From assembly GCA_044868695.1 (NCBI GenBank), contig JBIOWP010000053.1, positions 9,465-73,464 on the forward strand: a stretch of 64,000 nt of DNA, written 5' to 3'. The stretch comes from a bacterium. Lineage in GTDB: Bacteria; Sysuimicrobiota; Sysuimicrobiia; Sysuimicrobiales; Kaftiobacteriaceae. Positions 3,073-24,711 of this stretch are shown here, one piece after another. The notes below the pieces were generated by a model, which was not told where the DNA came from, did not search any database, and was given only the letters and a program-made list of their open reading frames with translations. The number at the start of each line of letters is the position of its first letter. Position 1 is the first letter of the stretch. The position numbers and the translations under genes were made by a program.

Positions 3073-3957
3073 CTACTCGGCGAAATCGCGCAGACGACCT
3101 GCGCGCTCACTCTGGCGGAGCTTGCGCAGCGCGCTTCGCTCAATCTGTCTGATGCGTTCCCGCGTGAGGCCGAACTCGCGCCCGACTTCCTGCAGCGTCT
3201 GAGGGCGCCCCCCGCCCAGGCCGAAGCGCAGCGCCAGCACCCGGCGCTCCCGTGGGGCGAGATCGTCCAGGGCCGTAGCGATCTGCCGTTTCAGCAGCGA
3301 TGCGGCAGCCGCGTCGTCAGGGGATGGGACGCTCGTGTCTTCCAGGAGCTCTCCCAGAGCGCTCTCGCCCGATTCGCCGATCGGTGTATCCAGCGAGACC
3401 GGGTCGTGCATCGCCCGGAGAATCGCGCCGACCTCGTCGGCAGACAGCCGGGTCAGACGGGCGAGATCTTCCGGCGCCGGATCGCGTCCGTGCTCCTGCA
3501 CGAGCCGGCGTGAGGCCGCTCTGATCTTCCCGTACTTCTCGGACACGTGGACGGGAACCCGGATGGTGCGCGCCTGCTCGGCAATGGCCCGGGTGACGGC
3601 CTGCCGGATCCACCACGTGGCGTAGGTGCTAAATTTGAACCCCCTCCGCCAGTCGAACTTCTCGACGGCCCGGATGAGCCCGCGGTTGCCCTCCTGTACG
3701 AGATCCAGCAGGTCGAGCCCCCGTCCGGTATGGCGCTTGGCCACCGACACCACGAGGCGCAGGTTGGCCTCGATGAGGCGGCGCCGGGCGTCCTGGTCGC
3801 CCGTTTCAGCCCGGCGGGCCAGATCGACCTCCTGCTCACGCGTGAGCAGGGGGATGCGGCCGATCTCCTTCAGATAGGCGCCGACGGCATCCGAAACGGC
3901 AGGCCGGGTGGGCTGCTGGCCCCCGGGTGTCACTGGTCCTCTCGTCTCCGCATCCAT
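3073..3957 (-). CDS. RNA polymerase sigma factor, sigma-70 family (RpoD/SigA-like, lacks region 1.1)
   Basis: Regions 1.2/2 ([53 protein letters not shown]), region 3 and region 4.2 HTH ([20 protein letters not shown]) are all present. Confidence 0.9.
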
Positions 3958-4628: not shown

Positions 4629-6155
4629 CTAGAATTCACGCCGCGCGGCCCACCAGACCGACCAGTCAGTCCGGGTTTGGCCGGTGACGTGAGAGGCGTT
4701 GGCGACCTCAGCCCACGTGACGCTGATCTCCTGCTGGAAGCCGGTGGGGCGCGGCATCCACGCGTAGTGCAGGCGCCACGCCTGGGTGGTTTCGATCACG
4801 CCTGAAAGATACAGATTCGACCAGGCGTCGGTGGGATCGGTGAAGGTCTGACCCAGCTGCCCTTCGCCCTTTCGCACGAGATCGAATCCCACACGCAGTA
4901 TCGCACCCGCGCCGAGATCCCGCGCCAGCTCCGCCGTCCACAGCTCGCAGTCCGGTGCGCACCAGTGTCCCACGGCCCGGCCGTTGCGGACGTAGTTGTT
5001 CATCCCACCGGCGGTGGCGTAGATCCAATTCGTTGCCCGGGTGTGTTCTACGCGGAGGGTCGTGAGCCCGTTCCCAAGGAGATTCCCCACGAATACACCT
5101 GCGGTCGCCCCGCCCAGGGTAGGCAGCGCGGACCCTCCGGTGGACAGATCATCTACGTAACCTTCCCCGTACAGAGTGATCCCGCGGCTCACACGCCAGT
5201 CGAAGTCGAAACCGACGTTGTAGTTGTCGGCCAGTCCCATCTGCTGCTGGCGGACCCACAGGCCCAGCCCGTAGGTCAGGAACGGCAGCGGGTTCAGCAG
5301 GTACGGCGAGTAGACGTCGCCGGATGCCACCATCACTTCGCTGAGCCCCAACCGCAGGCCGTCGGCGGCCAGCCAGTCCACCCGCATGCCGTAGAGGGTA
5401 CGCTGATCGGGGAGGCTCAGCGGCGCCGCCAGCTTGACGAGACGCAGCCGTTCCCATTCAGCGGAGACCCGCAGCGTCTCAATCGTCCCCGCGTTGTCGG
5501 AGATGAGGAAGGCCCCCCGGGAGCCCGGTCCCCACCAGTGCGTCATGGTGCCGGTCTGGACCAGGATGTCCGGTCCGCCTGCGCTCACATACACGCGGTC
5601 GACCAGCGGCGGCGCAGGCTCTGGCAGCAGGGGCTGCCGGACGGTTGCCCCCATCGTGAGCCACGGCCCCAGGCCGAAGGTCCCATCGATCTCGAAACGG
5701 AGCGTGCTGCCCTGCGGTGGGAGGAACCACGGCGGTGCCCCCGACTCGACCCGCCACACCAGCGCACGATTCAATCGCACACCCCACCCGGTAATGGCCA
5801 TGGCCGACGGCCCCTGGGGCGGTTCGACGACGCGGTACCCAAGCAGCGCGAGTTCATCGGAGAACTCCAGGACGAGACGCTCGAGGATGTTCACCCCGGC
5901 CTGGTCCGCAGCATTTCTGTCCGCACCGATCCGGTCCAGTGACCGCGCGATGATGCGAGACACTTCCAGACGGGTCAGCGGTCTGGTCGAGACCGCCCAC
6001 AGGGGGGCGAGGCCGGCCGCCGCAAGCCGGTAGAGGTCAACATAGACGGGGCTGTCAGAGGGGATGATCTCGAGGGAGTGCGCCGATGCGCCCGGTGCGA
6101 TCAGCGTCAGCGCGAGACAGGCGGCGGCCAGCACCCGCGGCCATGGACACCGCAT
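4629..6155 (-). CDS. outer-membrane beta-barrel protein, capsule-assembly Wzi-like (possibly PEP-CTERM-locus OMP)
   Basis: Signal peptide (LALTLIAPGASA), Gly/Tyr/Trp-rich beta-strand-like sequence and a C-terminal Phe. Convergent with the adjacent Wza-like export gene. Confidence 0.5.
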   Translation of the reverse strand: MRCPWPRVLAAACLALTLIAPGASAHSLEIIPSDSPVYVDLYRLAAAGLAPLWAVSTRPLTRLEVSRIIARSLDRIGADRNAADQAGVNILERLVLEFSDELALLGYRVVEPPQGPSAMAITGWGVRLNRALVWRVESGAPPWFLPPQGSTLRFEIDGTFGLGPWLTMGATVRQPLLPEPAPPLVDRVYVSAGGPDILVQTGTMTHWWGPGSRGAFLISDNAGTIETLRVSAEWERLRLVKLAAPLSLPDQRTLYGMRVDWLAADGLRLGLSEVMVASGDVYSPYLLNPLPFLTYGLGLWVRQQQMGLADNYNVGFDFDWRVSRGITLYGEGYVDDLSTGGSALPTLGGATAGVFVGNLLGNGLTTLRVEHTRATNWIYATAGGMNNYVRNGRAVGHWCAPDCELWTAELARDLGAGAILRVGFDLVRKGEGQLGQTFTDPTDAWSNLYLSGVIETTQAWRLHYAWMPRPTGFQQEISVTWAEVANASHVTGQTRTDWSVWWAARREF

Positions 6156-6172
6156 CTACCGGTCGGGCCCGA

Positions 6173-7249
6173 TCATCGCAGGGCGATGACGAGATCCGCG
6201 GTCACACCCAGCAGCAGCGCGACGTTTTCTATCGCCACAGGATTCTCCGGGACATAGAGCACGTCGCCGCGCTGCAACGAGACGTCGCGAGAGACATCAC
6301 CCTCACGAACGACCTTCCAGAGATCGACCGGGATGACTCTAATGGCGGCGCTCTCGCGGGCAACAACCACCGTGTTCAGCGAGACAGTAGACGTCGGGGG
6401 CTGCGTTCGTTCGCGCCTGATGATCGAGGACCGATTCAGCATGGCCCGCCGGGTTGGGCCCCCGGCCAGCGTCAGGGCCTGGAGCGCGGTGAGCGACCCG
6501 CGGACCGGCAACACTCCCGGCCGCTCCACCTGCCCCAGGACGTAGATGCGGGCCGTGGCATCTTCGGGAACCACGACGGAATCTCCCGACAACAGGGGCA
6601 GATTGAGCGAGAGGTCACCGCGCAAGAGGAGCCGTTCGAGGTCGATCAGCACCGGCGGAGCCTGCCCGCGCAACAGCCGGACTTCTCCGAGGCCGGCGTC
6701 GGGCGCCAGCCCCTCCGCGGCGGCGAGCGCGTCGAGGATCGTGGCGCCCGGTGCCAGCGCCACCACCCCGGGCCGCCGCACCTGTCCGAGCACGGACACC
6801 CGCACCCGGTGGAATGTGCGCACGATGACGGCGACTTGCGGCTCCCGGACGAATGTCGAAAACAGCTGAGTCAGCCGCTGGCGGAGCTGTTCTGGGGTCA
6901 AGCCGGCTGCCCGCACGTCCCCCACCAGGGGAAGGGAGATCACTCCGTCCGGCCGTATGATAACGATACGGGAAATCTCCGGATTGCGGAAGACAACGAT
7001 CTCGATCTCATCTTCACTTGCCAGGACATACGGCTCCTGGGCGACGGCCGGGGCTAATGGGGGGGTCATGAACATTGAGACCAGGACCAGGAACGCCAGG
7101 GTTGATCGCCAGGGCACGGGTGCACCCTCCGCTGCGTACTGGTCAGAGGATAGGGACCATCCTCCCAGGGGAGGAATCAGGTAGAATCCGGATGCGTATC
7201 GGGGAAAATCCCCTACGCCCCTACCAATCCTGGCTCCAAAGAGCCGCAT
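6173..7249 (-). CDS. polysaccharide export protein (Wza/KpsD family, Poly_export + SLBB repeats)
   Basis: PYVLASEDEIEIVVF...PDGVISLPLVGDV matches the Poly_export core. Two soluble-ligand-binding beta-grasp repeats follow (GQVRRPGV, GQVERPGV). The true start is probably internal, giving a signal peptide (LAFLVLVSMF...AVAQ). Confidence 0.8.
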   Translation of the reverse strand: MRLFGARIGRGVGDFPRYASGFYLIPPLGGWSLSSDQYAAEGAPVPWRSTLAFLVLVSMFMTPPLAPAVAQEPYVLASEDEIEIVVFRNPEISRIVIIRPDGVISLPLVGDVRAAGLTPEQLRQRLTQLFSTFVREPQVAVIVRTFHRVRVSVLGQVRRPGVVALAPGATILDALAAAEGLAPDAGLGEVRLLRGQAPPVLIDLERLLLRGDLSLNLPLLSGDSVVVPEDATARIYVLGQVERPGVLPVRGSLTALQALTLAGGPTRRAMLNRSSIIRRERTQPPTSTVSLNTVVVARESAAIRVIPVDLWKVVREGDVSRDVSLQRGDVLYVPENPVAIENVALLLGVTADLVIALR

Positions 7250-7256
7250 GGATATG

Positions 7257-7298
7257 GGGTATTTTCCGGTATCCGATTCAGGTCTTTACCTGATTCGG
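7257..7298 (+). promoter_or_regulatory. recurrent promoter-like motif, copy A (GGGTATTTTCC-N13-GGTCTT-TACCTGATTCGG)
   Basis: Sequence motif shared with copies at 11693, 13221, 13771, 15941, 17496 and 18737. Lies about 55 nt upstream of rsbR. Confidence 0.5.
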
Positions 7299-7353
7299 TT
7301 GGACACCGGTCGGTGAAATGTTATTGAAGAATCGCCGCCGAAGGAGGCCTGCC

Positions 7354-8271
7354 ATGCCTGATGCTGAAACGAGCGCGGTTGTGACCCCCGTGCCGCGAGA
7401 TGAGTCCACGACGGCGCTGCTGCGAGAGCTCGTGGCGCACCTTCGCCAGAGCCGGACCCAGCCCCGTGAGGAGTGGGCCCGGCGCATTACTGAAGCGAAA
7501 CTGCTGACCGCGATGAGCCCGGAAGAGGTGTTCGCCGAAGCCACGGCCGTGTACGACAACTACCTGGAAGCGCTGGAGACGGGGTCCATCGAGGCGCTGG
7601 AGACATACGCGAGAAACCTGTCGGAGCGGATCATCCCGCGGGGCGTCGAGACGCACGAGGTCGTGGGTATCGTCCTCCTGCTCCGCGACGTGCTGGCGCG
7701 GTCGCTGTTCGCGAAGTACCGCCGGGACTTTGACCAGTTGAACAGCATCCTCGACGCGTACGAGCCGGCGGCCAACCGGATCGCCATTACCGTGTCCGTC
7801 GGCTTTGTCCAAGAGCGCGAGCGCGTCATCCGCCAGCAGCAGGAAGCGATACGGGAACTGTCCACGCCGGTCCTGCCCGTGCGGGAACGCCTGCTGATCC
7901 TTCCAATTATTGGTATCATCGATCCACAGCGCGCGCGCCAGCTGACCGAACAGCTGCTGCGCGGCATTCGCGTGAACCGCGCGAAGGTCGTCGTGATGGA
8001 CATCACGGGCGTCCCGGCGATGGATGCCACGGTCGCGAACCACCTGGTGCAGACGGTGGAAGCGGCACGGCTGCTGGGGGCCATCGTCATCGTGACGGGC
8101 CTCGCCCCGGAGATCGCGCAGACCCTCGTCAACATCGGCGTGGATCTCAGCAAGATCATCACCGTCGGCGACATGCAGGGCGGGATTGAGGAAGCCGAGC
8201 GGCTGTTGGGCTACAAGGTTATGCCGGTCGCCGTCCTTCCGGCCAACGAGGCTCCGGAGGCCACCAGCTAG
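7354..8271 (+). CDS. rsbR: stressosome sensor protein RsbR (N-terminal globin-like domain + STAS)
   Basis: AAGGAGG RBS 7 nt before the ATG. C-terminal STAS domain (LPIIGIIDPQRARQLTEQLL...VVVMDITGVPAMD). Gene order RsbR-RsbS-RsbT-RsbX. Confidence 0.85.
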   Translation: MPDAETSAVVTPVPRDESTTALLRELVAHLRQSRTQPREEWARRITEAKLLTAMSPEEVFAEATAVYDNYLEALETGSIEALETYARNLSERIIPRGVETHEVVGIVLLLRDVLARSLFAKYRRDFDQLNSILDAYEPAANRIAITVSVGFVQERERVIRQQQEAIRELSTPVLPVRERLLILPIIGIIDPQRARQLTEQLLRGIRVNRAKVVVMDITGVPAMDATVANHLVQTVEAARLLGAIVIVTGLAPEIAQTLVNIGVDLSKIITVGDMQGGIEEAERLLGYKVMPVAVLPANEAPEATS

Positions 8272-8285
8272 CGGAGGTTGTCCAA

Positions 8286-8672
8286 ATGCCCGTCCCCATC
8301 CTCAAACAGCGTGACTATCTCATCGCGAGCATCCAGGCCGCGCTCACCGATGAGGACCTCAAGCAGCTGCGCGACGCGCTCGTGGCGCAGGTCGGACAAT
8401 TCCGCTCCCGCGGGGTCATCGTGGACGTGACCGCCCTCGACGTCATGGATTCCTTTGCCGTCCGGACGCTGCGCGACCTCGCGCACATGACGCGGCTGCG
8501 GGGGGCGGAAACGGTCATCGTGGGCATTCAGCCCGAGGTGGCCTTCGCGATGACGCAGTTAGGCCTGAAGCTTGAAGGGGTGGCCGCCGCCTTGGATCTG
8601 GAAGAGGGGCTGGCATATCTTGACCGTCGGGGCAAGCGAGCCGGAGTTCATGGGCCTCGGCCCATGAACTGA
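8286..8672 (+). CDS. rsbS: stressosome scaffold protein RsbS (STAS domain)
   Basis: 128-aa single STAS domain (GVIVDVTALDVMDS...) immediately after rsbR. GGAGG RBS. Confidence 0.85.
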   Translation: MPVPILKQRDYLIASIQAALTDEDLKQLRDALVAQVGQFRSRGVIVDVTALDVMDSFAVRTLRDLAHMTRLRGAETVIVGIQPEVAFAMTQLGLKLEGVAAALDLEEGLAYLDRRGKRAGVHGPRPMN

Positions 8673-8677
8673 TCCCC

Positions 8678-9136
8678 GTGATCTTACGTCCCAGCGCGGA
8701 TGGCGCGACACCCGTGACCGACGAAGGGCGCTCGGACACCTGGCAGGTGGTCGTCCCGATCACATCGGATCTTGACATCGTGGCCGCCCGGCAGCGCGGG
8801 CGGGTGCTGGCGCTTGACCTCGGCTACTCCGCGACGGAAGCCACGCTGGTCGCCACCGCCATCTCGGAACTGGCCCGGAACATCGTGTTGTACGCCAAAC
8901 GGGGTCAGATCGCCCTGACGAGCGCCAACGACGGCAGCCGGCGAGGGATCGTCATCGTCGCGCGCGACGACGGACCGGGGATCGCGGACGTGTCCCGGGT
9001 CACCGTGGGCGGGTACTCCACCTCGGGCGGTCTGGGCCTCGGATTGTCCGGCGTCCGGCGGTTGATGGACGAATTTGAGATTTCCAGCCAGGTGGGCAAG
9101 GGGACAACGGTGACGGTCAAGAGCTGGAAACGCTGA
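8678..9136 (+). CDS. rsbT: stressosome serine kinase RsbT (GHKL/HATPase_c anti-sigma-factor-like kinase)
   Basis: 152 aa with N and G boxes of the HATPase_c fold (ELARNIVLYA, ARDDGPGI, GGLGLGLSGVRRL). Position after rsbS. Confidence 0.85.
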   Translation: MILRPSADGATPVTDEGRSDTWQVVVPITSDLDIVAARQRGRVLALDLGYSATEATLVATAISELARNIVLYAKRGQIALTSANDGSRRGIVIVARDDGPGIADVSRVTVGGYSTSGGLGLGLSGVRRLMDEFEISSQVGKGTTVTVKSWKR

Positions 9137-9143
9137 GGGCGCC

Positions 9144-9740
9144 GTGATTGAGTGGGGCGCCGCGACGTTCACCCTCCGGGGGCAGGTCGAATCCGGCGAC
9201 CGCCATGTGGTGGCGCCGTTCGGCCCCGGGGTCCTTGTGGCCGCCATCGACGGTCTGGGGCATGGCGATGGGGCGGCCGAGGCCGCTTCGCGTGCCGCGA
9301 ACGTCCTGGAGGATGTGTCCGCCGAGTCGGTGATCGCCCTGGTCCGCCGCTGCCACGAGTCGCTGCGGCGGACGCGCGGAGTGGTGATGAGCCTCGCCTC
9401 GTTCCACGCGCCCGACGACACGATGACGTGGTTGGGCGTGGGCAACGTCGAGGGGCGACTGCTGCGCGCCGCCCGGGACTCGAATCCCCCACTTGAAACG
9501 CTCCTCCTCCGGGGCGGGGTGGTGGGGAACCAGCTCCCGCCGTTGCAGGCTGCCCTGCTGTCCGTCGCCCCGGGGGATGTGCTGGTGCTGGCGACGGACG
9601 GGGTCGCCCTGCCGCCGGTTCCCGAGGTCGGCCTCCACGACCGCCCGCAATCGATCGCGGAGAGGATTCTCGGCCGGCAGAAGAAAGAAACCGATGACGC
9701 GCTGGTGCTGGTGGTGCGGTGGGTGGGTCTGCCACGATGA
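9144..9740 (+). CDS. rsbX: PP2C-type phosphatase, RsbX-like (stressosome reset phosphatase)
   Basis: 198 aa with PP2C/SpoIIE motifs (DGLGHGDGAA, LVLATDGV). Same size and position as Bacillus RsbX. Confidence 0.75.
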   Translation: MIEWGAATFTLRGQVESGDRHVVAPFGPGVLVAAIDGLGHGDGAAEAASRAANVLEDVSAESVIALVRRCHESLRRTRGVVMSLASFHAPDDTMTWLGVGNVEGRLLRAARDSNPPLETLLLRGGVVGNQLPPLQAALLSVAPGDVLVLATDGVALPPVPEVGLHDRPQSIAERILGRQKKETDDALVLVVRWVGLPR

Positions 9741-11062
9741 CAGATGCGACGACCGAGCAGCTGACCAAATACGCCGCCGCGCTGAAGGAGTACCTCCGGG
9801 GAGGCGGCGAGCCCGCGCTGCAGCGGGCGTATGAACTCGGACGCGCCGCGCTCGCCGAGGGGGTCGGCGTGCTGGAGATGGCAGCGCTGCACCATCGGGC
9901 GATGGTGCAACTGCTGCGGTCTGAAGAGAGCCTGCCGGGGATGGTCGCGGCCGCGGGGCAGTTCTTGGTCGAGAGTCTGTCGCCATTTGAGATGACACAC
10001 CGGGGATACCGTGAAGCCAACGCGTCGCTTGAGGCCAGCGAGAAGCAGTACCGCGAGCTGTTCGAAAACGCCAACGATGCGGTGTTCACGGCTGACCTCA
10101 CCGGTCAGTTCACGTCCATCAACCGGGCGGGGGAGCAGCTGACGGGGTACGAGCGCGGTGAGGTCACGTCCATGAACTTCGCGAGCGTCGTCGTGCCCGA
10201 GCACGTGCCGATCGCCCAGCGCATGATGGAGCGGAAACTGCGTGGCGAGGTGGAACGGACCCGCTACGAAATCGAAATCAAGACCCGCGACGGACGGAGA
10301 GTTCCCGTCGAGGTGCACACCGCGCTGCTCCGCCATGACGGGCAGGCGGTGGGGATCCACGGCATTGCGCGCGATATCACGGAGCGCAAGCAGGCTGAAG
10401 AGACGCTGCGGTGGTTGAACGAGCGGTTGGAGGACGAGGCGAAGCGGATCGCGCACGCGCTGCACGATGAAGCCGGCCAGCTGCTCAGTTCCGTGCACCT
10501 CGCCCTGGAGGAGGTCGCGCGCGATCTTCCTCAGGGCGCGCGGGCGCGGATGCGGGCCGTGAAAGAGCTGCTCGACCAGATCGAAGAGGAGCTGCGGCGG
10601 CTGTCCCACGAGCTCCGGCCGACGGTGCTCGACGACCTCGGGCTGCTGCCGGCCCTGGAATTCCTCGCCGATCGCGTCGGCAGGCGCAGCGGGCTCACGA
10701 TTACGGTGCAGGACAAGACCGAGCGGCGCCTGCCGCCGTCTGTCGAGACGGCCCTCTACCGCAGCGTGCAGGAGGCGTTCAACAATATCATGCGGCACGC
10801 GAAGGCGGCGCGGGTGAAGGTAGAGATCCGGCAGGAGGCAGGGAGCGTGCTCTGCTCGGTGCGGGACGACGGCATTGGGTTCAACACCGCCGTGGTGAAG
10901 GTGCGCGAAGGCGAGCGCGGACTCGGTCTGATGGGCATCCGGGAACGCGCCGGCGCCCTGGGCGGGACGCTTGAGATCCGGTCGGCGCCGGGGAAGGGCA
11001 CCGAGCTGTCTATCTCGATTCCTCTGGAGAGTGGAGATGTCGCTGCGGATTCTGCTGGCTGA
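9737..11062 (+). CDS. sensor histidine kinase: RsbU-N-like domain + PAS + HisKA_3 + HATPase_c
   Basis: N-terminus (LTKYAAALKEYLRGGGEPALQRAYELGRAALAEGVGVLEMAALHHRAM) resembles the RsbT-binding RsbU_N helical domain. PAS region follows (YRELFENANDAVFTADLTGQFTSIN). HisKA_3 H-box is HELRPTVLDDLGLLPAL and the ATPase G-box is RDDGIGF. ATGA overlap with rsbX. Confidence 0.85.
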   Translation: MTDATTEQLTKYAAALKEYLRGGGEPALQRAYELGRAALAEGVGVLEMAALHHRAMVQLLRSEESLPGMVAAAGQFLVESLSPFEMTHRGYREANASLEASEKQYRELFENANDAVFTADLTGQFTSINRAGEQLTGYERGEVTSMNFASVVVPEHVPIAQRMMERKLRGEVERTRYEIEIKTRDGRRVPVEVHTALLRHDGQAVGIHGIARDITERKQAEETLRWLNERLEDEAKRIAHALHDEAGQLLSSVHLALEEVARDLPQGARARMRAVKELLDQIEEELRRLSHELRPTVLDDLGLLPALEFLADRVGRRSGLTITVQDKTERRLPPSVETALYRSVQEAFNNIMRHAKAARVKVEIRQEAGSVLCSVRDDGIGFNTAVVKVREGERGLGLMGIRERAGALGGTLEIRSAPGKGTELSISIPLESGDVAADSAG

Positions 11063-11669
11063 TGATCACGGAATCTTCCGCCAGGGCGTCAAGGCGCTGC
11101 TGGAGCGTGAAGGATTCCGCGTGGACGGCGAGGCCGGGGACGGCCACGCCGCGATTCAGCTCGCCGAGCAGCTGACTCCCGACGTCGCGGTCCTCGACCT
11201 CACCATGCCGCTGTTGAACGGCCTCGACGCGGCCAGGGAAATTGCGCGCCTGTCCCCGCGGACGCGGACGATCCTGCTGACGATGCATACCGAGGATCCG
11301 TATGTCGCCAAGGCGCTCGCGGCCGGCATCCGCGGGTACGTGCTGAAGAGCCAGGCGGCGGAGGACCTGGTGCAGGCCATCCGGGAGGTGTCCAAAGGCG
11401 CCGTGTATCTGAGTCCCGGCGTCTCGGAGGCCGTCGTCGAAGCGTACCTGGCGAGACGCGAGCTGCCCCGCGATCCGCTGACCTCGCGCGAGCGCCAGGT
11501 CCTGCAGCTCATCGCCGAGGGCAAGACCACCAAGGAGGTGGCCGGCCTCCTGGGCGTGAGCGTGAAGACGGCGGAGTCCCACCGGATGAGGATCATGTCC
11601 AAGCTCGATATCCACGAGACCGCCGGGCTGGTCCGCTACGCCATCCGTCAGGGACTGCTGCCGCCCTGA
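11037..11669 (+). CDS. NarL/LuxR-family response regulator (REC + LuxR HTH), copy 1
   Basis: ILLADDH...VAVLDLTMP receiver domain and LTSRERQVLQLIAEGKTTKEVA HTH. Overlaps the kinase gene end. Confidence 0.9.
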   Translation: MSLRILLADDHGIFRQGVKALLEREGFRVDGEAGDGHAAIQLAEQLTPDVAVLDLTMPLLNGLDAAREIARLSPRTRTILLTMHTEDPYVAKALAAGIRGYVLKSQAAEDLVQAIREVSKGAVYLSPGVSEAVVEAYLARRELPRDPLTSRERQVLQLIAEGKTTKEVAGLLGVSVKTAESHRMRIMSKLDIHETAGLVRYAIRQGLLPP

Positions 11670-11692
11670 CCCGCCCGCAGAAAAGCGAATCA

Positions 11693-11732
11693 GGGTTTTC
11701 CCTATGCGAGATTCAGGCGTTTACCCGATTGG
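11693..11732 (+). promoter_or_regulatory. recurrent promoter-like motif, copy B (GGGTTTTCC-N14-GGCGTT-TACCCGATTGG)
   Basis: Near-identical to copy A. Lies 84 nt upstream of the second response-regulator gene. Confidence 0.5.
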
Positions 11733-11815
11733 ACCCCCCAGCTAGATCCTCGTAGCGTTACGTATAAGACTGGCACGACATCTGTGTGGACGTTGCGAAG
11801 GAGTGACGCCGTCCC

Positions 11816-12448
11816 GTGCCACTAAGAGTGGTCATCGCCGACGACCATGCGATCGTCCGTCAAGGCGTCCGGGGCCTGCTGGAGCGCGAGGGCTTCGATG
11901 TCGTCGCGGAAGCGGGCGACGGCAAAGAGGCGGTCCGGCTGACGCAGGAGCTCGGTCCCGACGTGGCGGTCCTCGACTTCGTCATGCCGGTGCAGGACGG
12001 CCTCGACACGGCCCAGGAGATCTCGCAAGTGTCACCGGGGACCCGGGCGATCCTGCTGACGATGCATGCTGAGGAACCCTACGTCGTCAGAGCCCTGCAG
12101 GCGGGGATCAGGGGTTACGTCCTCAAATCACAGACCGCGGTTGAGCTGGTGGGCGCCATTACTGAAGTCATGCGGGGCGGGACCTACTTCAGCCCGGGCG
12201 TATCCGGCGCCATCGTCCAGGCGTATCAGGCCCGCAATGAACCTCCCTCCGATCACCTGACCCCGCGGGAACGTCAGGTGCTCCAGCTGGTTGCCGAGGG
12301 CAAGACTACCAAAGAGGTGGCTCAACTGCTGGGCATCAGCGCCAAGACGGCCGACTCCCACCGCAGCCGCATCATGTCCAAGCTGGACATTCATGAGACG
12401 GCCGGGCTGGTCCGCTACGCCATCCGCCAGGGGCTCATCAGGCTGTAA
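11816..12448 (+). CDS. NarL/LuxR-family response regulator, copy 2 (tandem paralog, ~80% aa identity to copy 1)
   Basis: GTG start. VVIADDH, VAVLDFVMP, and a C-terminal region nearly identical to copy 1 (TTKEVA.LLG.S.KTA.SHR.RIMSKLDIHETAGLVRYAIRQGL). Confidence 0.9.
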   Translation: MPLRVVIADDHAIVRQGVRGLLEREGFDVVAEAGDGKEAVRLTQELGPDVAVLDFVMPVQDGLDTAQEISQVSPGTRAILLTMHAEEPYVVRALQAGIRGYVLKSQTAVELVGAITEVMRGGTYFSPGVSGAIVQAYQARNEPPSDHLTPRERQVLQLVAEGKTTKEVAQLLGISAKTADSHRSRIMSKLDIHETAGLVRYAIRQGLIRL

Positions 12449-12471
12449 AGAGAATCACCGATCCTCCTTAA

Positions 12472-12494
12472 GGCGTCCTCCCGATTGAATCCCC
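12472..12494 (+). promoter_or_regulatory. partial copy of the recurrent motif (GGCGTC-CTCCCGATTGAATCCCC; 3' half only)
   Basis: Matches the downstream half of copies A and B. Lies 33 nt upstream of the ANTAR regulator gene. Confidence 0.3.
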
Positions 12495-12525
12495 GCCTAC
12501 GCGACCGTTACCATAGTCTAAACGT

Positions 12526-13191
12526 ATGCAAACTCTGCGCGTGCTCATTGCCGAAGATAAGCGTCTTGTCGCGACGCGTCTGAGCTCGCAGCTCGAGAGT
12601 CTCGGGCATGAGGTCGCGGGCGTCGTACAAGATGGCCGCGACTTAGTGGAGGCCGCCTGGCGCCTGCTGCCGGACGTGATTATCGTCGGACTGCCGCTGC
12701 CCGTGCTGGACGGGATCGAGGCGTCGCGCGCTATTCTCACCAGACATGCGATTCCCATTATCGTGCTTGCCGGGTACACCTCCGCAGGTCTTGTCCGGCG
12801 GGCCCAGGAAGCCGGTGTGCTCACGTTCCTCGCCTGGCCGACTGACACCAGCGCGCTGGGGTCCGCGATTTATGTCGCACTGACCCGCTTCCAGGAGCTG
12901 CAGGTACTGTCCGAGCAGTCGGGCGACCTCCGGCAGGCGTTGCGGGCGCGCGCGACGGTGGAGCGGGCAAGGAAGATGTTGATGCGGCGCCTTGACCTCA
13001 CGGAGGCCGATGCCTTCAGGTACATGCGCCGCCAAAGTCAGACCTCGGGCCTGCCGGTCCGAGACCTGGCAGCGAATATGCTGATGGTGGGAGAGTTTCT
13101 GTTTGGGAAGCTCGACACGGTCCGCCGTCTCGGAACGATCCTCGACGTGCTCAGGCAGCGCGAGGCAGTCGGTCCACAGCGGGTCGCTTGA
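12526..13191 (+). CDS. ANTAR-domain response regulator (REC + ANTAR RNA-binding antiterminator, AmiR/NasT-like)
   Basis: Receiver domain (VLIAEDKRL...VIIVGLPLPVLDG) and C-terminal ANTAR helices (VERARKMLMRRLDLTEADAFRYMRRQSQTSGLPVRDLAANML). Confidence 0.85.
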   Translation: MQTLRVLIAEDKRLVATRLSSQLESLGHEVAGVVQDGRDLVEAAWRLLPDVIIVGLPLPVLDGIEASRAILTRHAIPIIVLAGYTSAGLVRRAQEAGVLTFLAWPTDTSALGSAIYVALTRFQELQVLSEQSGDLRQALRARATVERARKMLMRRLDLTEADAFRYMRRQSQTSGLPVRDLAANMLMVGEFLFGKLDTVRRLGTILDVLRQREAVGPQRVA

Positions 13192-13220
13192 AGGTTCCCC
13201 CATAGTCCTTCCGCGCTCCT

Positions 13221-13259
13221 GGGTTTTCCCACCCGCCGGGTAGGGAAGCACCTGATTGG
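13221..13259 (+). promoter_or_regulatory. recurrent promoter-like motif, copy D (GGGTTTTCC-N13-GGGAAG-CACCTGATTGG)
   Basis: Sequence motif. Upstream of the small ORF at 13413 and the secreted propeller gene. Confidence 0.45.
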
Positions 13260-13412
13260 TCACGTCGGAGTCCAGCCCCTAGTGTGGGTTCGGAGAGCAC
13301 CCTCATAAGCTGAGGCCGTTACGGGTGAGCCCAGCCGGGCGTGTGAGTATGTGCGCGTTAAGGGTAGGGGCCGATCTCTGCGCGTGACGTCAAGGGTTCT
13401 GAGAACGATGCG

Positions 13413-13712
13413 ATGGGCACGCTGGTTATTTCGTTTGTCTCTGCGGTCACCGGGGCAGGGTACTCCGAGGGCGACGATGCAAAGATCACGATCGTCGTCC
13501 CGCGGTCGCACGCCTATCTTGCTGACCTGCTCGCCAGGGCCTTCGAAGGACGTGAGGACATCGAGGTCGTCGTGGACCGGCGGCGCGGCGACCGGCGGGC
13601 CCAGCAGCGGCCTGTCTCCGTCGATCGCCGGCGGAAAGATCGGCGCCGGCGCAAAGAGGAAGTCGTTGAGGTCGTAGTCGGCCGGCCGGGATGGCTGTCT
13701 GATACTTCGTAA
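13413..13712 (+). CDS. hypothetical small protein with Arg/Asp-rich C-terminal repeats (VDRRRGDRR...DRRRKDRRRR)
   Basis: 99-aa ORF on the coding strand opposite a likely spurious 783-aa antisense ORF. Protein family not recognised. Confidence 0.35.
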   Translation: MGTLVISFVSAVTGAGYSEGDDAKITIVVPRSHAYLADLLARAFEGREDIEVVVDRRRGDRRAQQRPVSVDRRRKDRRRRKEEVVEVVVGRPGWLSDTS

Positions 13713-13770
13713 GGAGCGGAGCCGCCATCTGAACGCCTATGACGCGGTCAGAACCGCGCGTGGGTGGTAG

Positions 13771-13810
13771 GGGAACTTCCCGCCGGTGAGTCGGAGATTT
13801 ACCTGATTGG
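13771..13810 (+). promoter_or_regulatory. recurrent promoter-like motif, copy E (GGGAACTTCC-N12-GGAGAT-TTACCTGATTGG)
   Basis: Sequence motif 63 nt upstream of the ATG at 13873. Confidence 0.45.
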
Positions 13811-13872
13811 CCGCGTCCGGGGAACACGCTACACCCAAACCGGGTAGACGTCTGCATCGGTGGAGGAATGGC

Positions 13873-15831
13873 ATGCGACCGGCGATCCTGCGGAGTGCGG
13901 TGTGCGTCCTTTTCGTGAGCCTCCTGGCGGGTGGCCCGCCGGCCTCGGCGTGGGACGGAGTGTCTCATGCCGTCGTCAAGGTGTGGAATACCGCCGTTCC
14001 TATTCCCCCCTCCTTGAGCCTCGGGCTGACGCCGGGCGAGTCCGTCGAGGATCCCGCCGGCCTCACAGACCATGGCACAAGTTTCCCCACGATCGTGACC
14101 GTGTATGCCCGCAGCAGCCATCCGGGGGGTCTGTCGGGAGTGTCGTATTGGAATCCCGAGGGGAATGTCTTCGCGTGGTATGGGAAGACGTTTGGAGGGC
14201 TGCCCGCGGCGCAAATGCCACCGCCGCCGCCCAGCAGCGGGTTCCCAGGCGGGGTCGATATCAACCGGGGCGGCGGACCGGTCCTGGCAGGCGGACCATT
14301 CGGAACATCGTTTGGACCGGGTGATGTCTGGATCGGCGGAGCGCAGAATGAGCCGCTGATCGTGCAGATGGCCGGCTCGGACCCGCTGACCGGCGCCGGC
14401 AGGTTCCGATCCTACGGGACCAACAACCCGCTGCTGCCGCCGTCCGGCCAGGCCTTTGGGGTTCAGGTCGACGAAGCCACCGGGCACGTCTTCGTCGCCC
14501 AGACCTTCGAACGCCGGATCAGCCGGGTGAATCCTCCGACGGCGATCGTCACCATGTGGGACATGGGGACCTGCAACGGGTCGACGTGCGGCAGCCCCGT
14601 CTATGTGACGGTCGACACGTCGGGGCGCCCCTACGCGACGACGGTCGGATCGACGTTTGGGGACGGCGTCGTTCGCGTGAACCGCGGCGCAGACGGCGTG
14701 CTGGGGCTCAACCCCCTCACCGGCGTCTCTGACGACACCATCAGCCTGTGGGCGCTCCCCAGCCAGCCTGCATACCGCATCCCGCCGCTGTTCCTGACGA
14801 ATCCGGAGGAGAACCCGAACGGGCTCATTACCGCGGATGCGGATGGCAATGTGTGGATCTCCGAAAGCGGTGCCCACAAGGTGGCACGGCTGAACCCTGC
14901 CACGAACCAGATCTGCGAATACACCACGTCTGGAATGCGCAACCCGCAGCAGATCACGACGACGGGGTCCGGCAGCTCGCTGCAGGTGTTCTTCACGGAG
15001 GGGGAGGGCAACTCGGTCAGTGTGCTCACGCAGGGCGAAGCCGACCTGGCGCCGTTCCCCGACCGGGCGTGCGTCAGTGTCACGCCCCTCACCTTTCCGA
15101 CGCGTGTGGTCGACGTGACGACGCAGACCTTTGACGAACTGGTGCTGCCTCTGCGGACGGCGATCGTGCCGACGGTCCATCACGTGGCCTCGGTCGGCGG
15201 ATCGGGCATCGCGCGGTTCTCGCCTATGCCGAACCCGCTGCTGTCCGTTGACGGGGACCCGATCGGGGATGCGGGCAACGGTTTCCCGTCGGGGATGACC
15301 GGTGTGTACGGGGTGAATCGGGTCGCGGGCGCGTACCTCGATCTGCAGAATGGCAACAAGCACTTTCAGGTGGAAAGCCGCCTCATCACCGCCCCGCCGC
15401 CATCCCCGCCCGGCGGGCTGCCCGGCCGCATGACCGGTGGCGGGAGGCTCGCCACCGCGGACGGGACGAAGGTGACATACGGGCTCGTGCTGCGGTGCGC
15501 GGCGGATCAACAGGGCAAAGACGCGCTGCAGGTGAACTGGAGCGAGGGCAACAGGTTCCATCTCACGCGGGTCAACGCGGCCTCGTGCAGTGACGATCCG
15601 TCCATCAGCCCCGATCCTCCCCCTGCGTCGTTCGACACTCACTCGGGCCGCGGGACAGGCCGCTACAATGGCGTAGACGGCGCCACGGCGGAGTGGACGT
15701 TCACCGACGCCGGAGAACCGGGGAACGACGATACCGTCCGGCTCGTCATCCGGAACGCCTCGGGCACGGTTGTGCTCGTGGTCTCGGGCCGGCTCACGAG
15801 AGGGAACAATCAGGCGCACGACGCCAGGTAG
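13873..15831 (+). CDS. secreted beta-propeller protein with Vgb (streptogramin-lyase)-like repeats
   Basis: Signal peptide (MRPAILRSAVCVLFVSLLAGGPPASA). Repeats such as NPNGLITADADGNVWISESGAHKVARLNP and TGHVFVAQTFERRISRVNP fit the Vgb-lyase propeller blade pattern. A terminator follows. Confidence 0.7.
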   Translation: MRPAILRSAVCVLFVSLLAGGPPASAWDGVSHAVVKVWNTAVPIPPSLSLGLTPGESVEDPAGLTDHGTSFPTIVTVYARSSHPGGLSGVSYWNPEGNVFAWYGKTFGGLPAAQMPPPPPSSGFPGGVDINRGGGPVLAGGPFGTSFGPGDVWIGGAQNEPLIVQMAGSDPLTGAGRFRSYGTNNPLLPPSGQAFGVQVDEATGHVFVAQTFERRISRVNPPTAIVTMWDMGTCNGSTCGSPVYVTVDTSGRPYATTVGSTFGDGVVRVNRGADGVLGLNPLTGVSDDTISLWALPSQPAYRIPPLFLTNPEENPNGLITADADGNVWISESGAHKVARLNPATNQICEYTTSGMRNPQQITTTGSGSSLQVFFTEGEGNSVSVLTQGEADLAPFPDRACVSVTPLTFPTRVVDVTTQTFDELVLPLRTAIVPTVHHVASVGGSGIARFSPMPNPLLSVDGDPIGDAGNGFPSGMTGVYGVNRVAGAYLDLQNGNKHFQVESRLITAPPPSPPGGLPGRMTGGGRLATADGTKVTYGLVLRCAADQQGKDALQVNWSEGNRFHLTRVNAASCSDDPSISPDPPPASFDTHSGRGTGRYNGVDGATAEWTFTDAGEPGNDDTVRLVIRNASGTVVLVVSGRLTRGNNQAHDAR

Positions 15832-15845
15832 CGGCATGCGGCAAT

Positions 15846-15884
15846 CCCGCAGGCGCCGGAGAGTGGGCGCCTGCGGTCTTTTTC
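15846..15884 (+). terminator. rho-independent terminator (GC hairpin CCCGCAGGCGCC/GGCGCCTGCGG + TCTTTTTCT)
   Basis: Inverted repeat followed by a T-run, immediately after the stop at 15831. Confidence 0.65.
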
Positions 15885-15940
15885 TCTAGGGACATTCCCC
15901 GATGGCGTTTGATGACTTCTCCCTCGAACGTTCTCCAGCC

Positions 15941-15969
15941 GGTTTTCCAGGCTTCGCCTGATTGGTCTT
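15941..15969 (+). promoter_or_regulatory. recurrent promoter-like motif, copy F (GGTTTTCC-N8-CCTGATTGGTCTT)
   Basis: Sequence motif. The GGTTT to GGTCTT spacing is 17 nt, as in the other copies. Confidence 0.45.
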
Positions 15970-16137
15970 CACGCTACGGTTAGGCACAGTGAGTGATGGA
16001 ATGCGCAAGCGATCCGGACCCCCGAGGGGCCGGGAAGGAGGGATTGCGTCAACCAGTCACCGTAGGTCTCCGGTCCTTTGCATCGGGAGGTCGGACCGGC
16101 GCAGGGTCGTGTCGCACATGTCGAGAGGAGGAACGCA

Positions 16138-16782
16138 ATGAGCACGATGAGAGTCATGCACAGCCACGGCGCGCGCTGGGGTGTCGGTGCGCTGACCGTG
16201 GTCTTGACAATCTTCCTGGCGGTGCCCGCTCCTGTGAGCGCGCAGCTGCCGCTCCCACTGCCGGGAAGCGGAGGGGGGTCAGGGCCTCAGGCGACCGTAG
16301 TGCAGGCCGCCGTGTTCGGATCGACCGCCACGCTGGCCGATACCGGGACCCTCACGAGCGCCAGTGATCCTCTGGAAGCGTCGCTGGATGCAGGCAGCGC
16401 ATTGGGAGTCGTGAACGGGGAAGTCCTGCACGCCGTCACGATCGGCTGGTCCGATCAGGTCGTCTCTGAAGCTTCGCTCGGGAACCTCACCATCGCGGGA
16501 GGCGGGCTTAGCATCATTGCGGACTTCGTGATGGCCCGGGCGCAGTCTGTCTCGGGATCCGGGAGCAGCGGTGGCTCCCTCATCGAGAACCTGTCGATCA
16601 ACGGGGCGCCAGTCCAGCTCACCGGAGTGAATCAGACGATCGCCCTGCTGGGGGGCCTCACCCTGGTCATCAACGAGGTGCAACAGTCGGGGAGCTCGGT
16701 CACGGCCAACGCCCTGCACCTCACGTCGCTGGATGGTCTCGTCGACATCGTGGTCGCGTCGGCGAGGGCGGGTGGGTTCTGA
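16138..16782 (+). CDS. hypothetical secreted Gly/Ser/Thr-rich protein
   Basis: Strong RBS (GAGAGGAGGAACGCA before the ATG). Signal peptide (GALTVVLTIFLAVPAPVSAQ). No recognised domain. Confidence 0.6.
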   Translation: MSTMRVMHSHGARWGVGALTVVLTIFLAVPAPVSAQLPLPLPGSGGGSGPQATVVQAAVFGSTATLADTGTLTSASDPLEASLDAGSALGVVNGEVLHAVTIGWSDQVVSEASLGNLTIAGGGLSIIADFVMARAQSVSGSGSSGGSLIENLSINGAPVQLTGVNQTIALLGGLTLVINEVQQSGSSVTANALHLTSLDGLVDIVVASARAGGF

Positions 16783-16805
16783 TGAGAGGACAGGAGGAGT
16801 GGACG

Positions 16806-17393
16806 ATGCGTAAGGTCATCTCATCTCTACTGGTGCTCGTCGCCGTTGTGGCGATGCAGGTGGTAGTTCCGACCCCCGCGCCTGCCCACGTGATCCCCAA
16901 ACCATGTGATTTCACGACCGGCGGCGGATTTGTTTTCAACCCCTTCCCCAATGGAGCGAGGATCAACTTCGGCCTCGTCGGGGGGTGTAAGCACGGCTCG
17001 TTCTTCGGCCATGTGAACATCGTTGATCGGAGTTTCCCCCTTGGCCAGCTGCACGTGAGCAGCACGAGCATTGACGCGTACTTCGATCCGATAATTTCAG
17101 GATCGGGGTACCGTGATATCTGTGGCACGGCCAGGACGAATCTCGTCGGCGATGTGAAGTTTCGCGTGCGAACGAAGGACAACGGAGAACCCGGAGGCGA
17201 TGACCGCTTTGGGTTCAAACTGGCCAAGAATGGCGCAACGTACACTGTCAGCGTTCGGGAGCTGGGTCCCCCCGGCCGGACGGGCGGCGGTGGCAACATC
17301 CAGCTGCACAAGCCCAACCCGTCGACCACGGGACCGGACTTTGTAGACGAGATCGTTGCGTGCGGTGCGGATGACTCTGGATTGGGATTCTGA
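16806..17393 (+). CDS. hypothetical secreted protein
   Basis: AGGAGGAG RBS. Signal peptide (VISSLLVLVAVVAMQVVVPTPAPA). Starts 24 nt after the previous stop. Confidence 0.6.
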   Translation: MRKVISSLLVLVAVVAMQVVVPTPAPAHVIPKPCDFTTGGGFVFNPFPNGARINFGLVGGCKHGSFFGHVNIVDRSFPLGQLHVSSTSIDAYFDPIISGSGYRDICGTARTNLVGDVKFRVRTKDNGEPGGDDRFGFKLAKNGATYTVSVRELGPPGRTGGGGNIQLHKPNPSTTGPDFVDEIVACGADDSGLGF

Positions 17394-17495
17394 CCGACTC
17401 GAGTCCCAAGGTTGTCGTCGCTCAACTATCGGTCCCCGGGGGGCCCGCATGGCGAGCCTCCCGGGGCAGTTTCTTGGGTGGTTCAAATTCCAGCC

Positions 17496-17544
17496 GAGTT
17501 CAGGGGTTTTCCTCGCTGCACGTCCGGCGTCCACCTGATACCGG
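17496..17544 (+). promoter_or_regulatory. recurrent promoter-like motif, copy G (GAGTTCAGGGGTTTTCC-N13-GGCGTC-CACCTGATACCGG)
   Basis: Sequence motif 72 nt upstream of the ATG at 17614. Confidence 0.45.
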
Positions 17545-17613
17545 CGGAGGAGGGGAGCCGCCTATTCTCGGGCTAACGCGAAGGCGCTCCCCGAAGAGAG
17601 GGATGGCTGAACG

Positions 17614-18555: not shown

Positions 18556-18578
18556 GACCTATCACAGGGAGGCTGTTC

Positions 18579-18710
18579 ATGGGAAGTGTCCGGGCGTCGG
18601 TTCTGCTTGTCATTGCCGGCACGGTGTCTCTGGTGCTCGCACTGGGCCTGCGCCGCGGGTCCGGGAGCGGGTACCACCACCCTCCCGATGCGCTAGCCGT
18701 CTGGGGCTGA
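18579..18710 (+). CDS. 43-aa single-pass membrane peptide (not in supplied ORF track)
   Basis: AGGGAGG RBS 6 nt before the ATG. Translates to MGSVRASVLLVIAGTVSLVLALGLRRGSGSGYHHPPDALAVWG. Confidence 0.35.
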   Translation: MGSVRASVLLVIAGTVSLVLALGLRRGSGSGYHHPPDALAVWG

Positions 18711-18736
18711 TTACGGGGTTCACGCATGGCAACGTT

Positions 18737-18779
18737 GGGGTTTTTCCCCAATGGGCTTCCGGACTTCACCCTATTCCTG
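18737..18779 (+). promoter_or_regulatory. recurrent promoter-like motif, copy H (GGGGTTTTTCC-N13-GGACTT-CACCCTATTCCTG)
   Basis: Sequence motif upstream of the NusG-like gene that heads the polysaccharide locus. Confidence 0.4.
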
Positions 18780-21184: not shown

Positions 21185-21188
21185 TCTG

Positions 21189-21983: not shown

Positions 21984-22008
21984 GTCGATCGCAGGGAAGA
22001 GGGATAAG

Positions 22009-22686: not shown

Positions 22687-22695
22687 CAGACGCGT

Positions 22696-23319: not shown

Positions 23320-23329
23320 GCCGGATCGC

Positions 23330-24688: not shown

Positions 24689-24711
24689 GAGGCGCGGAAC
24701 GGAGGAGATCG

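Follow-up and report, generated by a model that had tools for sequence, protein, structure and literature searches.

The 64-kb window analysed here, a stretch of contig JBIOWP010000053.1 to which all statements about absent genes refer, contains a stressosome gene cassette located within an exopolysaccharide (EPS) locus. Judged from its sequence, the cassette encodes a minimal stressosome, consisting of an RsbR/RsbS core, RsbT and RsbX, that is genetically welded to a histidine kinase with an RsbU_N domain and to a NarL-type response regulator. The most plausible output of the stressosome is this kinase, whose RsbU_N domain is genuine by profile evidence. Overall, we consider it reasonably likely that this output is a two-component system, which would act on NarL-type regulators and on EPS promoters.

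In the proposed chain of events, homology suggests that a core of RsbS and RsbR, the latter with a globin-like sensor joined to a STAS domain, would sequester RsbT. Upon a signal, RsbT would phosphorylate RsbS and be released, while the PP2C phosphatase RsbX would reset the complex, again as predicted from homology. From the RsbT-RsbU mechanism and the linkage of the genes, free RsbT would then be expected to bind the dimeric RsbU_N domain of the soluble kinase, where it would stiffen the linker helix (residues ~82-107) leading into the PAS and HisKA_3 domains and switch autophosphorylation at H243. The kinase would phosphorylate response regulator 1 (RR1), encoded in the same overlapping operon, and probably also the 70%-identical response regulator 2 (RR2). 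These NarL-type regulators are the presumed binders of two palindromic elements, centred ~46 and ~67 bp upstream of the start sites, at six local promoters. Their binding would lead to autoregulation of the genes from rsbR to RR1; to induction of RR2 and of a gene for an ANTAR protein; and to control of wza-wzi, of genes for secreted proteins, and of an operon containing a UpxY-like antiterminator, wzz and a bacterial tyrosine kinase (BY-kinase). The ANTAR protein itself would be a pseudo-receiver antiterminator under the circuit, acting on RNA either constitutively or via a protein partner. An action of RsbT on effectors linked to RsbU_N, including an NreB-like kinase, has been explicitly proposed (PMC12143880).

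Layout of the cassette and the RsbU_N kinase

The cassette consists of eight genes, all on the plus strand between positions 7354 and 13191, whose order and Pfam domains agree with a preliminary description of this DNA (rsbRSTX, a kinase, two NarL-type regulators and an ANTAR protein). Domain calls were judged against the curated Pfam thresholds, and all calls for cassette domains pass them. The first gene, rsbR (7354-8271), is preceded by GAAGGAGG and encodes the stressosome co-antagonist, in which a globin-like sensor at the N-terminus is joined to a C-terminal STAS domain (50.2 bits); rsbS (8286-8672) encodes a single-STAS antagonist (52.6 bits). The GHKL serine kinase or switch protein RsbT (8714-9136; HATPase_c 46.2 and HATPase_c_2 39.3 bits) has an alternative GTG start at 8678 and is called as a 140-aa protein in identical metagenome contigs, and rsbX (9144-9740) encodes a single-domain PP2C feedback phosphatase (SpoIIE/PP2C, 38.5 bits). 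Further downstream are the soluble histidine kinase (9737-11062; RsbU_N 43.7, PAS 61.8, HisKA_3 37.2 and HATPase_c 59.9 bits), the NarL/GerE-type regulator RR1 (11037-11669; Response_reg 97.6 and GerE 63.7 bits), its paralogue RR2 (11816-12448; Response_reg and GerE), and the ANTAR protein (12526-13191; Response_reg 55.4 and ANTAR 59.3 bits). The receivers of RR1 and RR2 are canonical, while that of the ANTAR protein is a degenerate (pseudo-)receiver.

The gaps between rsbR, rsbS, rsbT and rsbX are 14, 41 and 7 nt long, the end of rsbX runs 4 nt into the kinase gene, and the kinase and RR1 genes overlap by 26 nt; RR1 and RR2 are separated by 146 nt, and RR2 and the ANTAR gene by 77 nt. Because the overlaps and short gaps end at the 146-nt gap, rsbR to RR1 can be read as one tight unit and RR2-ANTAR as a second; the latter is confined to certain lineages and has a promoter-like motif of its own upstream. 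No terminator-like sites were found on the plus strand between 6000 and 14000.

The window lacks the components of a SigB partner-switch. A tblastn search of the 64 kb found no further STAS protein, RsbT/RsbW-like protein or kinase paralogue, and no RsbV, RsbW or sigma factor of the SigB/F/G family was found near the module within the same span. The sole nearby sigma gene (3073-3957, minus strand) scores 128 bits against a SigBFG cut-off of 234 and encodes a 294-aa group-2, RpoD/RpoS-like protein. Since tblastn returned no further STAS or RsbW-like matches and this sigma factor is not of the SigB/F/G type, the partner-switch is absent within 64 kb, which upholds the earlier remark that an RsbV/RsbW pair is missing.

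Among the stressosome proteins themselves, residues 136-287 of RsbR match the RsbR chains in cryo-electron microscopy structures of the B. subtilis and Listeria stressosomes (9o3z, 7b0u and 6qcm; E 1.9e-36, phmmer). Its N-terminal domain has no significant Pfam match (RsbRD_N, 15.9 bits, under the cut-off of 24.3). The AlphaFold2 model of this domain (predicted local distance difference test, pLDDT, 82) finds globin sensor domains as its top Foldseek matches (5ohe; probability 1.0, TM-score 0.64-0.67, E 6e-3), and it also matches N-RsbR (2bnl; TMt 0.64-0.71). The RsbR N-terminus is therefore modelled as a globin-like sensor fold, in which H101, the candidate proximal His for a putative heme, is nearly, but not fully, invariant.

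The kinase contains RsbU_N at about residues 11-86, a helical linker, PAS at 104-225, HisKA_3 with the phospho-His H243, and HATPase_c. All four domains are called by Pfam, and the proposal that RsbU_N is here fused to PAS, HisKA_3 and HATPase_c rather than to PP2C is sustained. Moreover, the N-terminus, of which the preliminary description quoted residues 9-56 as RsbU_N-like, passed the profile search that it had set: RsbU_N (PF08673) scores 43.7 bits in the full kinase against a cut-off of 25.5, covering profile positions 2-74 of 75, and residues 1-98 alone score 47.5 bits (E 2e-12). Conversely, a profile made from 17 kinase N-termini finds N-RsbU structures as its four best matches in the PDB (2j70, 2j6z, 1w53 and 2j6y; E 1.6e-4 to 2.1e-3), covering RsbU residues 5-87. 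The AlphaFold2 monomer of the N-terminus is all-helical (pLDDT 86), with a continuous helix from residue 82 to 107. Across 20 homologues, the kinase residues H243-D244, N350, D377/G379/G381 and G397/L398/G400 are invariant.

In an alignment to CheY, the receivers of RR1 and RR2 have the DD acidic pair, the phospho-Asp, the Thr and the Lys all present. The two regulators are 70% identical in protein and 71-76% in DNA, below the ~80% previously estimated, and their recognition helices are nearly identical. A survey of one-genome-per-species data provided loci for comparison, which are denoted by L-numbers (L003-L005 and L082 are ANGP1-like; L006 and L020 are from Rokubacteria); orthologues of RR2 in L003-L005 are 72-74% identical to it. 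The source organism itself appears close to the metagenome-assembled genomes 'Bacillati bacterium ANGP1' and 'Armatimonadetes 13_1_40CM_64_14'.

The bipartite upstream motif and the exopolysaccharide genes

The upstream regions of rsbR and RR2 share a motif, spotted by eye and then tested, with the form GGGGWTTTYCCC-N8-GATTCAGGNNTTTACCNGATT and an extended second block, (G)ATTC(A/C)GG-NN-TT(T/C)ACC-NGATT. The shared 21-mer GATTCAGGNNTTTACCNGATT occurs in two exact copies, one upstream of each gene, as compared with 0.00 expected. Both blocks are imperfect palindromes (GGGGWTTTYCCC; TCAGGT-N4-ACCTGA). At its 3′ end, the motif overlaps with a −35-like hexamer (TTGnnn), which is followed after ~18 nt by a −10-like one (TAnnCT); sigma-70 consensus promoters were found neither in 6000-14000 nor in 13000-26000.

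An nhmmer profile built from other genomes only, without the window sequences, has exactly six matches in the window at E ≤ 1, all of them intergenic and facing the downstream gene. Two of them lie between divergent genes: the site upstream of rsbR (7249-7298, plus strand; E 2.5e-8), which has an exact match to GATTCAGGNNTTTACCNGATT, and the site upstream of wza (7169-7222, minus strand; E 9e-7). The other four are on the plus strand, located upstream of RR2-ANTAR (11688-11736; an exact match to the pattern, E 7e-9), upstream of the gene for a secreted 652/674-aa protein (13767-13813; a weaker site with three mismatches to the pattern, E 3.9e-4), upstream of a secreted-protein gene at 17614-18555 (17497-17543; E 2.5e-6), and upstream of a UpxY-like NusG paralogue and the wzz/BY-kinase EPS operon that it heads (18730-18777; E 2.1e-5).

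The motif also accompanies the cassette elsewhere. Counting L082 among the cassette loci, to which it was re-assigned, 41 such loci have 28 matches, as compared with 1 match in 39 loci that lack the cassette and add up to a similar length. In several other phyla, the motif is found upstream of rsbR, of a second response regulator and of a NusG paralogue; equivalent sites upstream of the NusG paralogue are present in L003, L004, L005, L020 and L082. A pairing of palindrome 1 with RR1 and of palindrome 2 with RR2 was rejected, because the recognition helices are nearly identical and because loci with and without block 1 do not differ consistently in how many regulators they encode. Separately, a GC-rich palindrome, ATGAGGGCCCTCA, lies ~70 nt downstream of motif sites in the leaders of the close relatives L003 (~6520), L004 (~14380), L005 (~10785) and L082 (~15075); no copy was seen at the corresponding position of the window.

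Whether the motif is a NarL operator is the point at which the proposed chain meets its strongest competitor. The motif is strictly orientation-specific, with 35 of 36 matches on the cassette strand, and its overlap with the −35-like hexamer would also suit a promoter read by a dedicated sigma factor, or else the site of an EPS regulator unlinked to the cassette. Candidate sigma factors are at hand: the group-2 sigma gene is 3.4 kb from the cassette, a homologue with 53% identity interrupts the cassette of the Rokubacteria locus L006 after RR1 and before the second regulator, with motif sites on its flanks, and the EPS locus of L082 has a sigma gene of the extracytoplasmic function (ECF) type. 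In contrast, both blocks are palindromic, as expected for dimeric helix-turn-helix proteins; the motif travels with the cassette in phyla that have no such sigma gene nearby; it stands before the first gene of the cassette, the usual signature of two-component autoregulation; and the recognition helix of the regulators is conserved across phyla. A sigma promoter or a site for an unlinked regulator is somewhat unlikely on these grounds, and it nonetheless counts against the proposed chain, as does the finding that only 17 of the 41 cassette loci have a composite-motif match at E ≤ 0.01.

If the NarL-type regulators do bind the motif, they would control genes of the surrounding EPS locus. The earlier statement that the cassette adjoins a region of secreted-protein and EPS genes is correct, as wza, wzi, secreted proteins, wzz, a BY-kinase and wzy are found around it. 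Upstream of rsbR and divergent from it is a wza-like polysaccharide export gene (6173-7117, minus strand; Poly_export 77.8 bits, with SLBB), followed by wzi (4629-6155; Wzi 75.5 bits). Downstream of the cassette are genes for the secreted 652/674-aa protein and for a choice-of-anchor-P protein and, further downstream, for the UpxY/RfaH-like NusG paralogue, wzz, the BY-kinase and wzy. The wza and wzi neighbours are also present in L004, L005 and L082, and linkage of the NusG paralogue, wza and wzz to the cassette recurs in loci from Rokubacteria, Binatia and Acidobacteriota and in ANGP1-like loci.

The listed starts of wza (6173-7249) and of the secreted-protein gene (13807-15831) are probably too far upstream, because motif sites fall inside these open reading frames (ORFs). 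A ribosome binding site-like sequence together with a signal peptide-like N-terminus places the starts at GTG 7117 for wza and at ATG 13873 for the secreted protein, which are probably the true ones. Just 3′ of the end of the secreted-protein gene at 15831 is a strong intrinsic terminator-like hairpin (15847-15876, plus strand) with 11 pairs, 10 of them G-C, and a T-run.

The NusG paralogue that heads the EPS operon (18921-19655, plus strand; NusG 64.6 bits) is of the UpxY/RfaH/LoaP-like kind; its best NCBIfam match is UpxY, with 86.7 bits, under the cut-off of 100. The distance between its motif site and the start of the NusG domain is ~350 nt (18778-19127), where the domain starts at residue 82 of the ORF listed from 18921. 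The leaders of the NusG paralogues in relatives have a similar length; an alignment of six leaders revealed no convincing conserved structure that extends to the window.

The far end of the window has features of its own. Two segments 7.16 kb apart, 50906-51302 and 58063-58471, are 73-84% identical over several blocks, which suggests paralogous genes in the distal part of the polysaccharide region. A c-di-GMP-I-GGC riboswitch (RF03167; 63366-63443, minus strand) scores 67.2 bits against a gathering score of 59. Directly downstream of it is a 1049-aa ORF (60158-63307, minus strand) that has two internal repeats of 300 nt with 96% identity (60170-60469 and 60641-60940). A weak seventh match to the cassette motif (63507-63541, plus strand; E 0.05) lies beside this riboswitch.

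Conservation of the cassette and the coupling of its parts

The architecture RsbU_N-PAS-HisKA_3-HATPase_c is present in nearly all of the top 120 protein clusters matching the kinase. Loci with an RsbU_N-kinase were obtained from 40 species representatives in at least eight phyla, with members from ANGP1, Rokubacteria/Methylomirabilota, Gemmatimonadales, Acidobacteriota, Nitrospirae, Binatia, Verrucomicrobiia, Eisenbacteria, and Alpha-, Beta- and Gammaproteobacteria (the last being L038, L040-L042, L048 and L049). A NarL regulator directly follows the kinase in every one of 36 loci. The rsbRSTX set is full in 20 of 28 loci, partial in 7 and absent in 1. A second NarL regulator and an ANTAR gene are restricted to the ANGP1-like loci (L003-L005 and L082) and the Rokubacteria loci (L006 and L020). 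The core cassette of rsbRSTX, kinase and NarL regulator is thus widespread as well as already present in the literature, and calling the arrangement unusual, as was done at first, does not hold.

Conservation within the cassette is uneven. Median identity to the window proteins is 82% for RsbR over its full length, sensor included, 77% for RsbS, 66% for the response regulator, 62% for RsbT, 55% for the kinase core, 50% for RsbX and 46% for RsbU_N. Likewise, full-length RsbR is 76-93% identical between phyla, as compared with 41-72% for RsbX, the kinase and RsbU_N encoded in the same operons (L003-L049). Such uneven identity inside one operon points to differential constraint and not simply to recent transfer; an explanation of the high RsbR identity by recent horizontal transfer alone was rejected, since medians from the same operons span 82% to 46%. 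Constraint this strong on the sensor domain of RsbR is unusual.

In an alignment to B. subtilis RsbR, equivalents of the phospho-threonines T171 and T205 are absent, with Pro in IIDPQRA and Ala in AMDATVA in their places; the Ala at the T205 position has a Thr one position later. The replacements are invariant, or nearly so, across 22 family members. RsbS has a Ser in VMDSF at its phospho-serine position, as read from the sequence, which we take to be the equivalent of B. subtilis S59. Because the RsbR threonines are lost and the RsbS serine is kept, the phosphorylation logic is probably centred on RsbS.

The missing threonines weigh against the proposed chain, as do several observations on the kinase. 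The identity of its RsbU_N domain rests on profile evidence, since the N-terminal model gave no Foldseek match at E ≤ 0.001; its match to N-RsbU (2j6z), in which a monomer model is compared with a dimeric structure, is weak (rank 42, TMq 0.50, TMt 0.62, E 3.0). Residues E24, Y28, I74 and I78 of RsbU are implicated in RsbT binding (PMC12143880). Only E24 is kept in the kinase, where it is invariant in the family, while Y28 is replaced by Gln, I74 by Val or Ala, and I78 by Ser. Further, three loci (L009, L010 and L045) have an RsbU_N-kinase without a neighbouring rsbT.

The partial retention of RsbT-contact residues and the loci without rsbT leave room for a looser arrangement of stressosome and two-component system, in which the PAS domain mainly controls the kinase and RsbU_N only dimerises, or in which RsbT acts by transient phosphorylation. 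Indeed, the PAS domain between RsbU_N and HisKA_3 scores well and could be the dominant input, and Heinz et al., working on Vibrio, were unable to show binding of RsbT to D1 and proposed phosphorylation instead (PMC9237108). Loose coupling, however, sits poorly with the genetics. Within ≤1.3 kb upstream, rsbT adjoins the kinase in 32 of the 34 species loci that have enough upstream sequence, and it remains there even where rsbR, rsbS or rsbX is undetected; rsbX, the kinase gene and RR1 are joined into one unit by their overlapping reading frames; and RsbU_N is retained and recognizable across phyla. We consider loose coupling improbable, and a direct action of RsbT on the RsbU_N domain of the kinase is preferred.

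Past the kinase, the chain would comprise two true regulators and one protein of another kind. The ANTAR domain (PF03861) is clear, scoring 59.3 bits against a cut-off of 27.3 and covering profile positions 2-52 of 54, and the best relative of the protein in the PDB is Rv1626/PdtaR (1s8n; E 7.6e-30). In alignments to Rv1626 (1s8n), to CheY and to RR1 and RR2 of the window, however, its receiver has Gly for the phospho-Asp (Asp57), Ala for Thr87 and Trp for Lys109 (CheY numbering). The Gly is not a sequencing slip, since the orthologues in L004, L005 and L082 share it; the loss of the phospho-Asp would be recent, since the protein is nearest to the phosphorylatable Rv1626/PdtaR and since the Asp is still in place in the L003, L006 and L020 orthologues. 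The conserved Lys is absent in all seven orthologues. With Gly, Ala and Trp in place of Asp, Thr and Lys, the protein cannot be a canonical target of phosphotransfer, and its sequence puts it functionally in the pseudo-receiver ANTAR class, of which AmiR/AmiC, under the control of a protein partner, is the established paradigm (PMC3369931). The claim of a fan-out to three response regulators does not survive this correction: only the receivers of RR1 and RR2 are complete, and the unusual fan-out is largely an artefact of taking the ANTAR protein for a true response regulator.

It is very improbable that all three regulators are nevertheless direct outputs of the kinase, with the ANTAR protein reached through a non-canonical site or through docking of receiver and kinase, as the co-orientation and clustering of the genes (in the window and in L003-L006, L020 and L082) and the Asp kept in L003, L006 and L020 might suggest, because the window protein lacks Asp, Thr and Lys, the Lys is missing from every orthologue, the usual determinants of kinase specificity in alpha-1 are not the same as in RR1 and RR2 (CheY alignment), ANTAR is absent from most cassette loci, and a partner-controlled class of pseudo-receiver ANTAR proteins is known (AmiR/AmiC; PMC3369931).

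Searches for an RNA target of the ANTAR protein were negative within their scope. Dual A1/G4 hexaloop targets number 5 across the whole window, against 3.6 in shuffles, and all are within coding sequence; a relaxed hexaloop scan of ten leaders gave 1, against 1.06 expected; and an Rfam search of 6900-20000 at E ≤ 5 gave two chance-level matches only and no ANTAR target. Next to the ANTAR gene is a 99-aa ORF (13413-13712, plus strand) that matches neither Pfam nor NCBIfam models and whose C-terminus is rich in Arg (DRRRGDRR...DRRRKDRRRRKEE); it is conserved directly 3′ of the ANTAR gene in L003-L006, L020 and L082 with 42-60% identity. Its product may assist the pseudo-receiver ANTAR protein as a partner or co-factor.

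More speculatively, the cassette may be a self-contained unit that carries its own bipartite operator across phyla and, in this lineage, uses it to switch on directly the EPS locus led by the UpxY-like antiterminator, with RR2 and the pseudo-receiver ANTAR protein as a second tier. In the same tentative reading, the high identity of RsbR (~82%, versus ~50% for RsbX and the kinase) would reflect a universal ligand of the globin-like domain.

Relation to known stressosomes

The cassette resembles the SigB pathway of B. subtilis and Listeria in its RsbR STAS and linker region (E 2e-36), in its RsbS, RsbT and RsbX homologues, and in having RsbU_N on a protein encoded beside rsbRSTX. It departs from that pathway in that RsbU_N is attached to PAS-HisKA_3-HATPase_c and not to PP2C, in having no RsbV, RsbW or SigB within the window, in the position of rsbX directly after rsbT, in its single RsbR, and in the absence of the T171/T205 phospho-sites.

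Stressosomes with other outputs are known. Comparative genomics has identified rsbRSTX genes with non-SigB outputs, including two-component proteins and RsbU_N effectors (Heinz et al. 2022, PMC9237108, which cites an earlier survey by Pane-Farre), and the coupling of stressosome and two-component system, which the preliminary description took as established, is confirmed there. In Vibrio vulnificus, as here, a four-gene rsbRSTX set is followed by two-component genes (D1/D2) without a sigma factor, and RsbR has a globin-fold sensor (PMC9237108, PMC4976288). In contrast to the clear RsbU_N of the window kinase, D1 has no detectable RsbU_N, and no interaction between RsbT and D1 was found (PMC9237108). 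The Vibrio RsbR is a heme globin-coupled sensor that has no N-terminal sequence similarity to the window RsbR, and its output is tied to c-di-GMP and iron metabolism, whereas here a NarL-type DNA binder is encoded beside EPS genes.

A close likeness is the RsbU_N-'NreB' kinase MBI3545564.1 from a gammaproteobacterial metagenome-assembled genome (Baral et al. 2025, PMC12143880). It also combines RsbU_N, a coiled-coil linker and a histidine kinase, and it is encoded with rsbT and stressosome genes; going by its description, it and the window kinase probably belong to the same family. It is presented as an AlphaFold model only, with its regulators, regulon and context not described (PMC12143880). 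In Moorella thermoacetica, according to the account of Quin et al. 2012 cited in PMC12143880, the MtR-MtS-MtT-MtX-MtG system likewise has an RsbT homologue acting on a non-phosphatase effector that bears RsbU_N; that effector is described as a GAF-GGDEF diguanylate cyclase with a second-messenger output, in contrast to the kinase and DNA-binding regulators found here. Since comparative genomics and an AlphaFold model precede it (PMC9237108, PMC12143880), the window cassette is a further case of a known architecture. A full-text literature search found no paper other than PMC9237108 that links RsbU_N to histidine kinases, and none that connects such an EPS locus with a stressosome.

The two candidate antiterminators also have known counterparts. 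Like the AmiR-type proteins (PMC3369931), the ANTAR protein has its output domain behind a non-phosphorylatable, receiver-like domain; unlike them, it has no AmiC-like partner gene nearby, is nearest in sequence to the phosphorylatable Rv1626/PdtaR, and has no dual-hexaloop target in the window scans. The NusG paralogue resembles UpxY, RfaH and LoaP in being encoded by the first gene of a long polysaccharide operon with a ~350-nt leader, and it differs in scoring 86.7 bits against the UpxY cut-off of 100 and in having a cassette-associated motif upstream.

The control targets of stressosomes outside Bacillales are, to our knowledge, largely unknown, with links so far only to iron metabolism in Vibrio and to c-di-GMP in Moorella. 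What is new here is the breadth of the family and its uneven conservation, the recognition that the ANTAR protein has a pseudo-receiver, the lack of phospho-sites in RsbR, and the candidate operator and regulon. The correction to the ANTAR protein bears on experimental design, because no phosphotransfer from the kinase to this protein is to be expected. The cassette family is abundant in soil bacteria, and it offers a testable chain from RsbT to the RsbU_N kinase, the NarL regulators and a candidate operator at six operons, including those for capsule or EPS. If true, this chain would provide a non-SigB stressosome that is tractable and whose activity can be read from defined promoters, and it would link the sensing of stress to exopolysaccharide production in phyla of which few or no members have been cultured, such as ANGP1 and Rokubacteria. 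If its operator and EPS parts are also true, this would be the first stressosome to have both a defined DNA regulon and an output at the cell surface or in biofilms.

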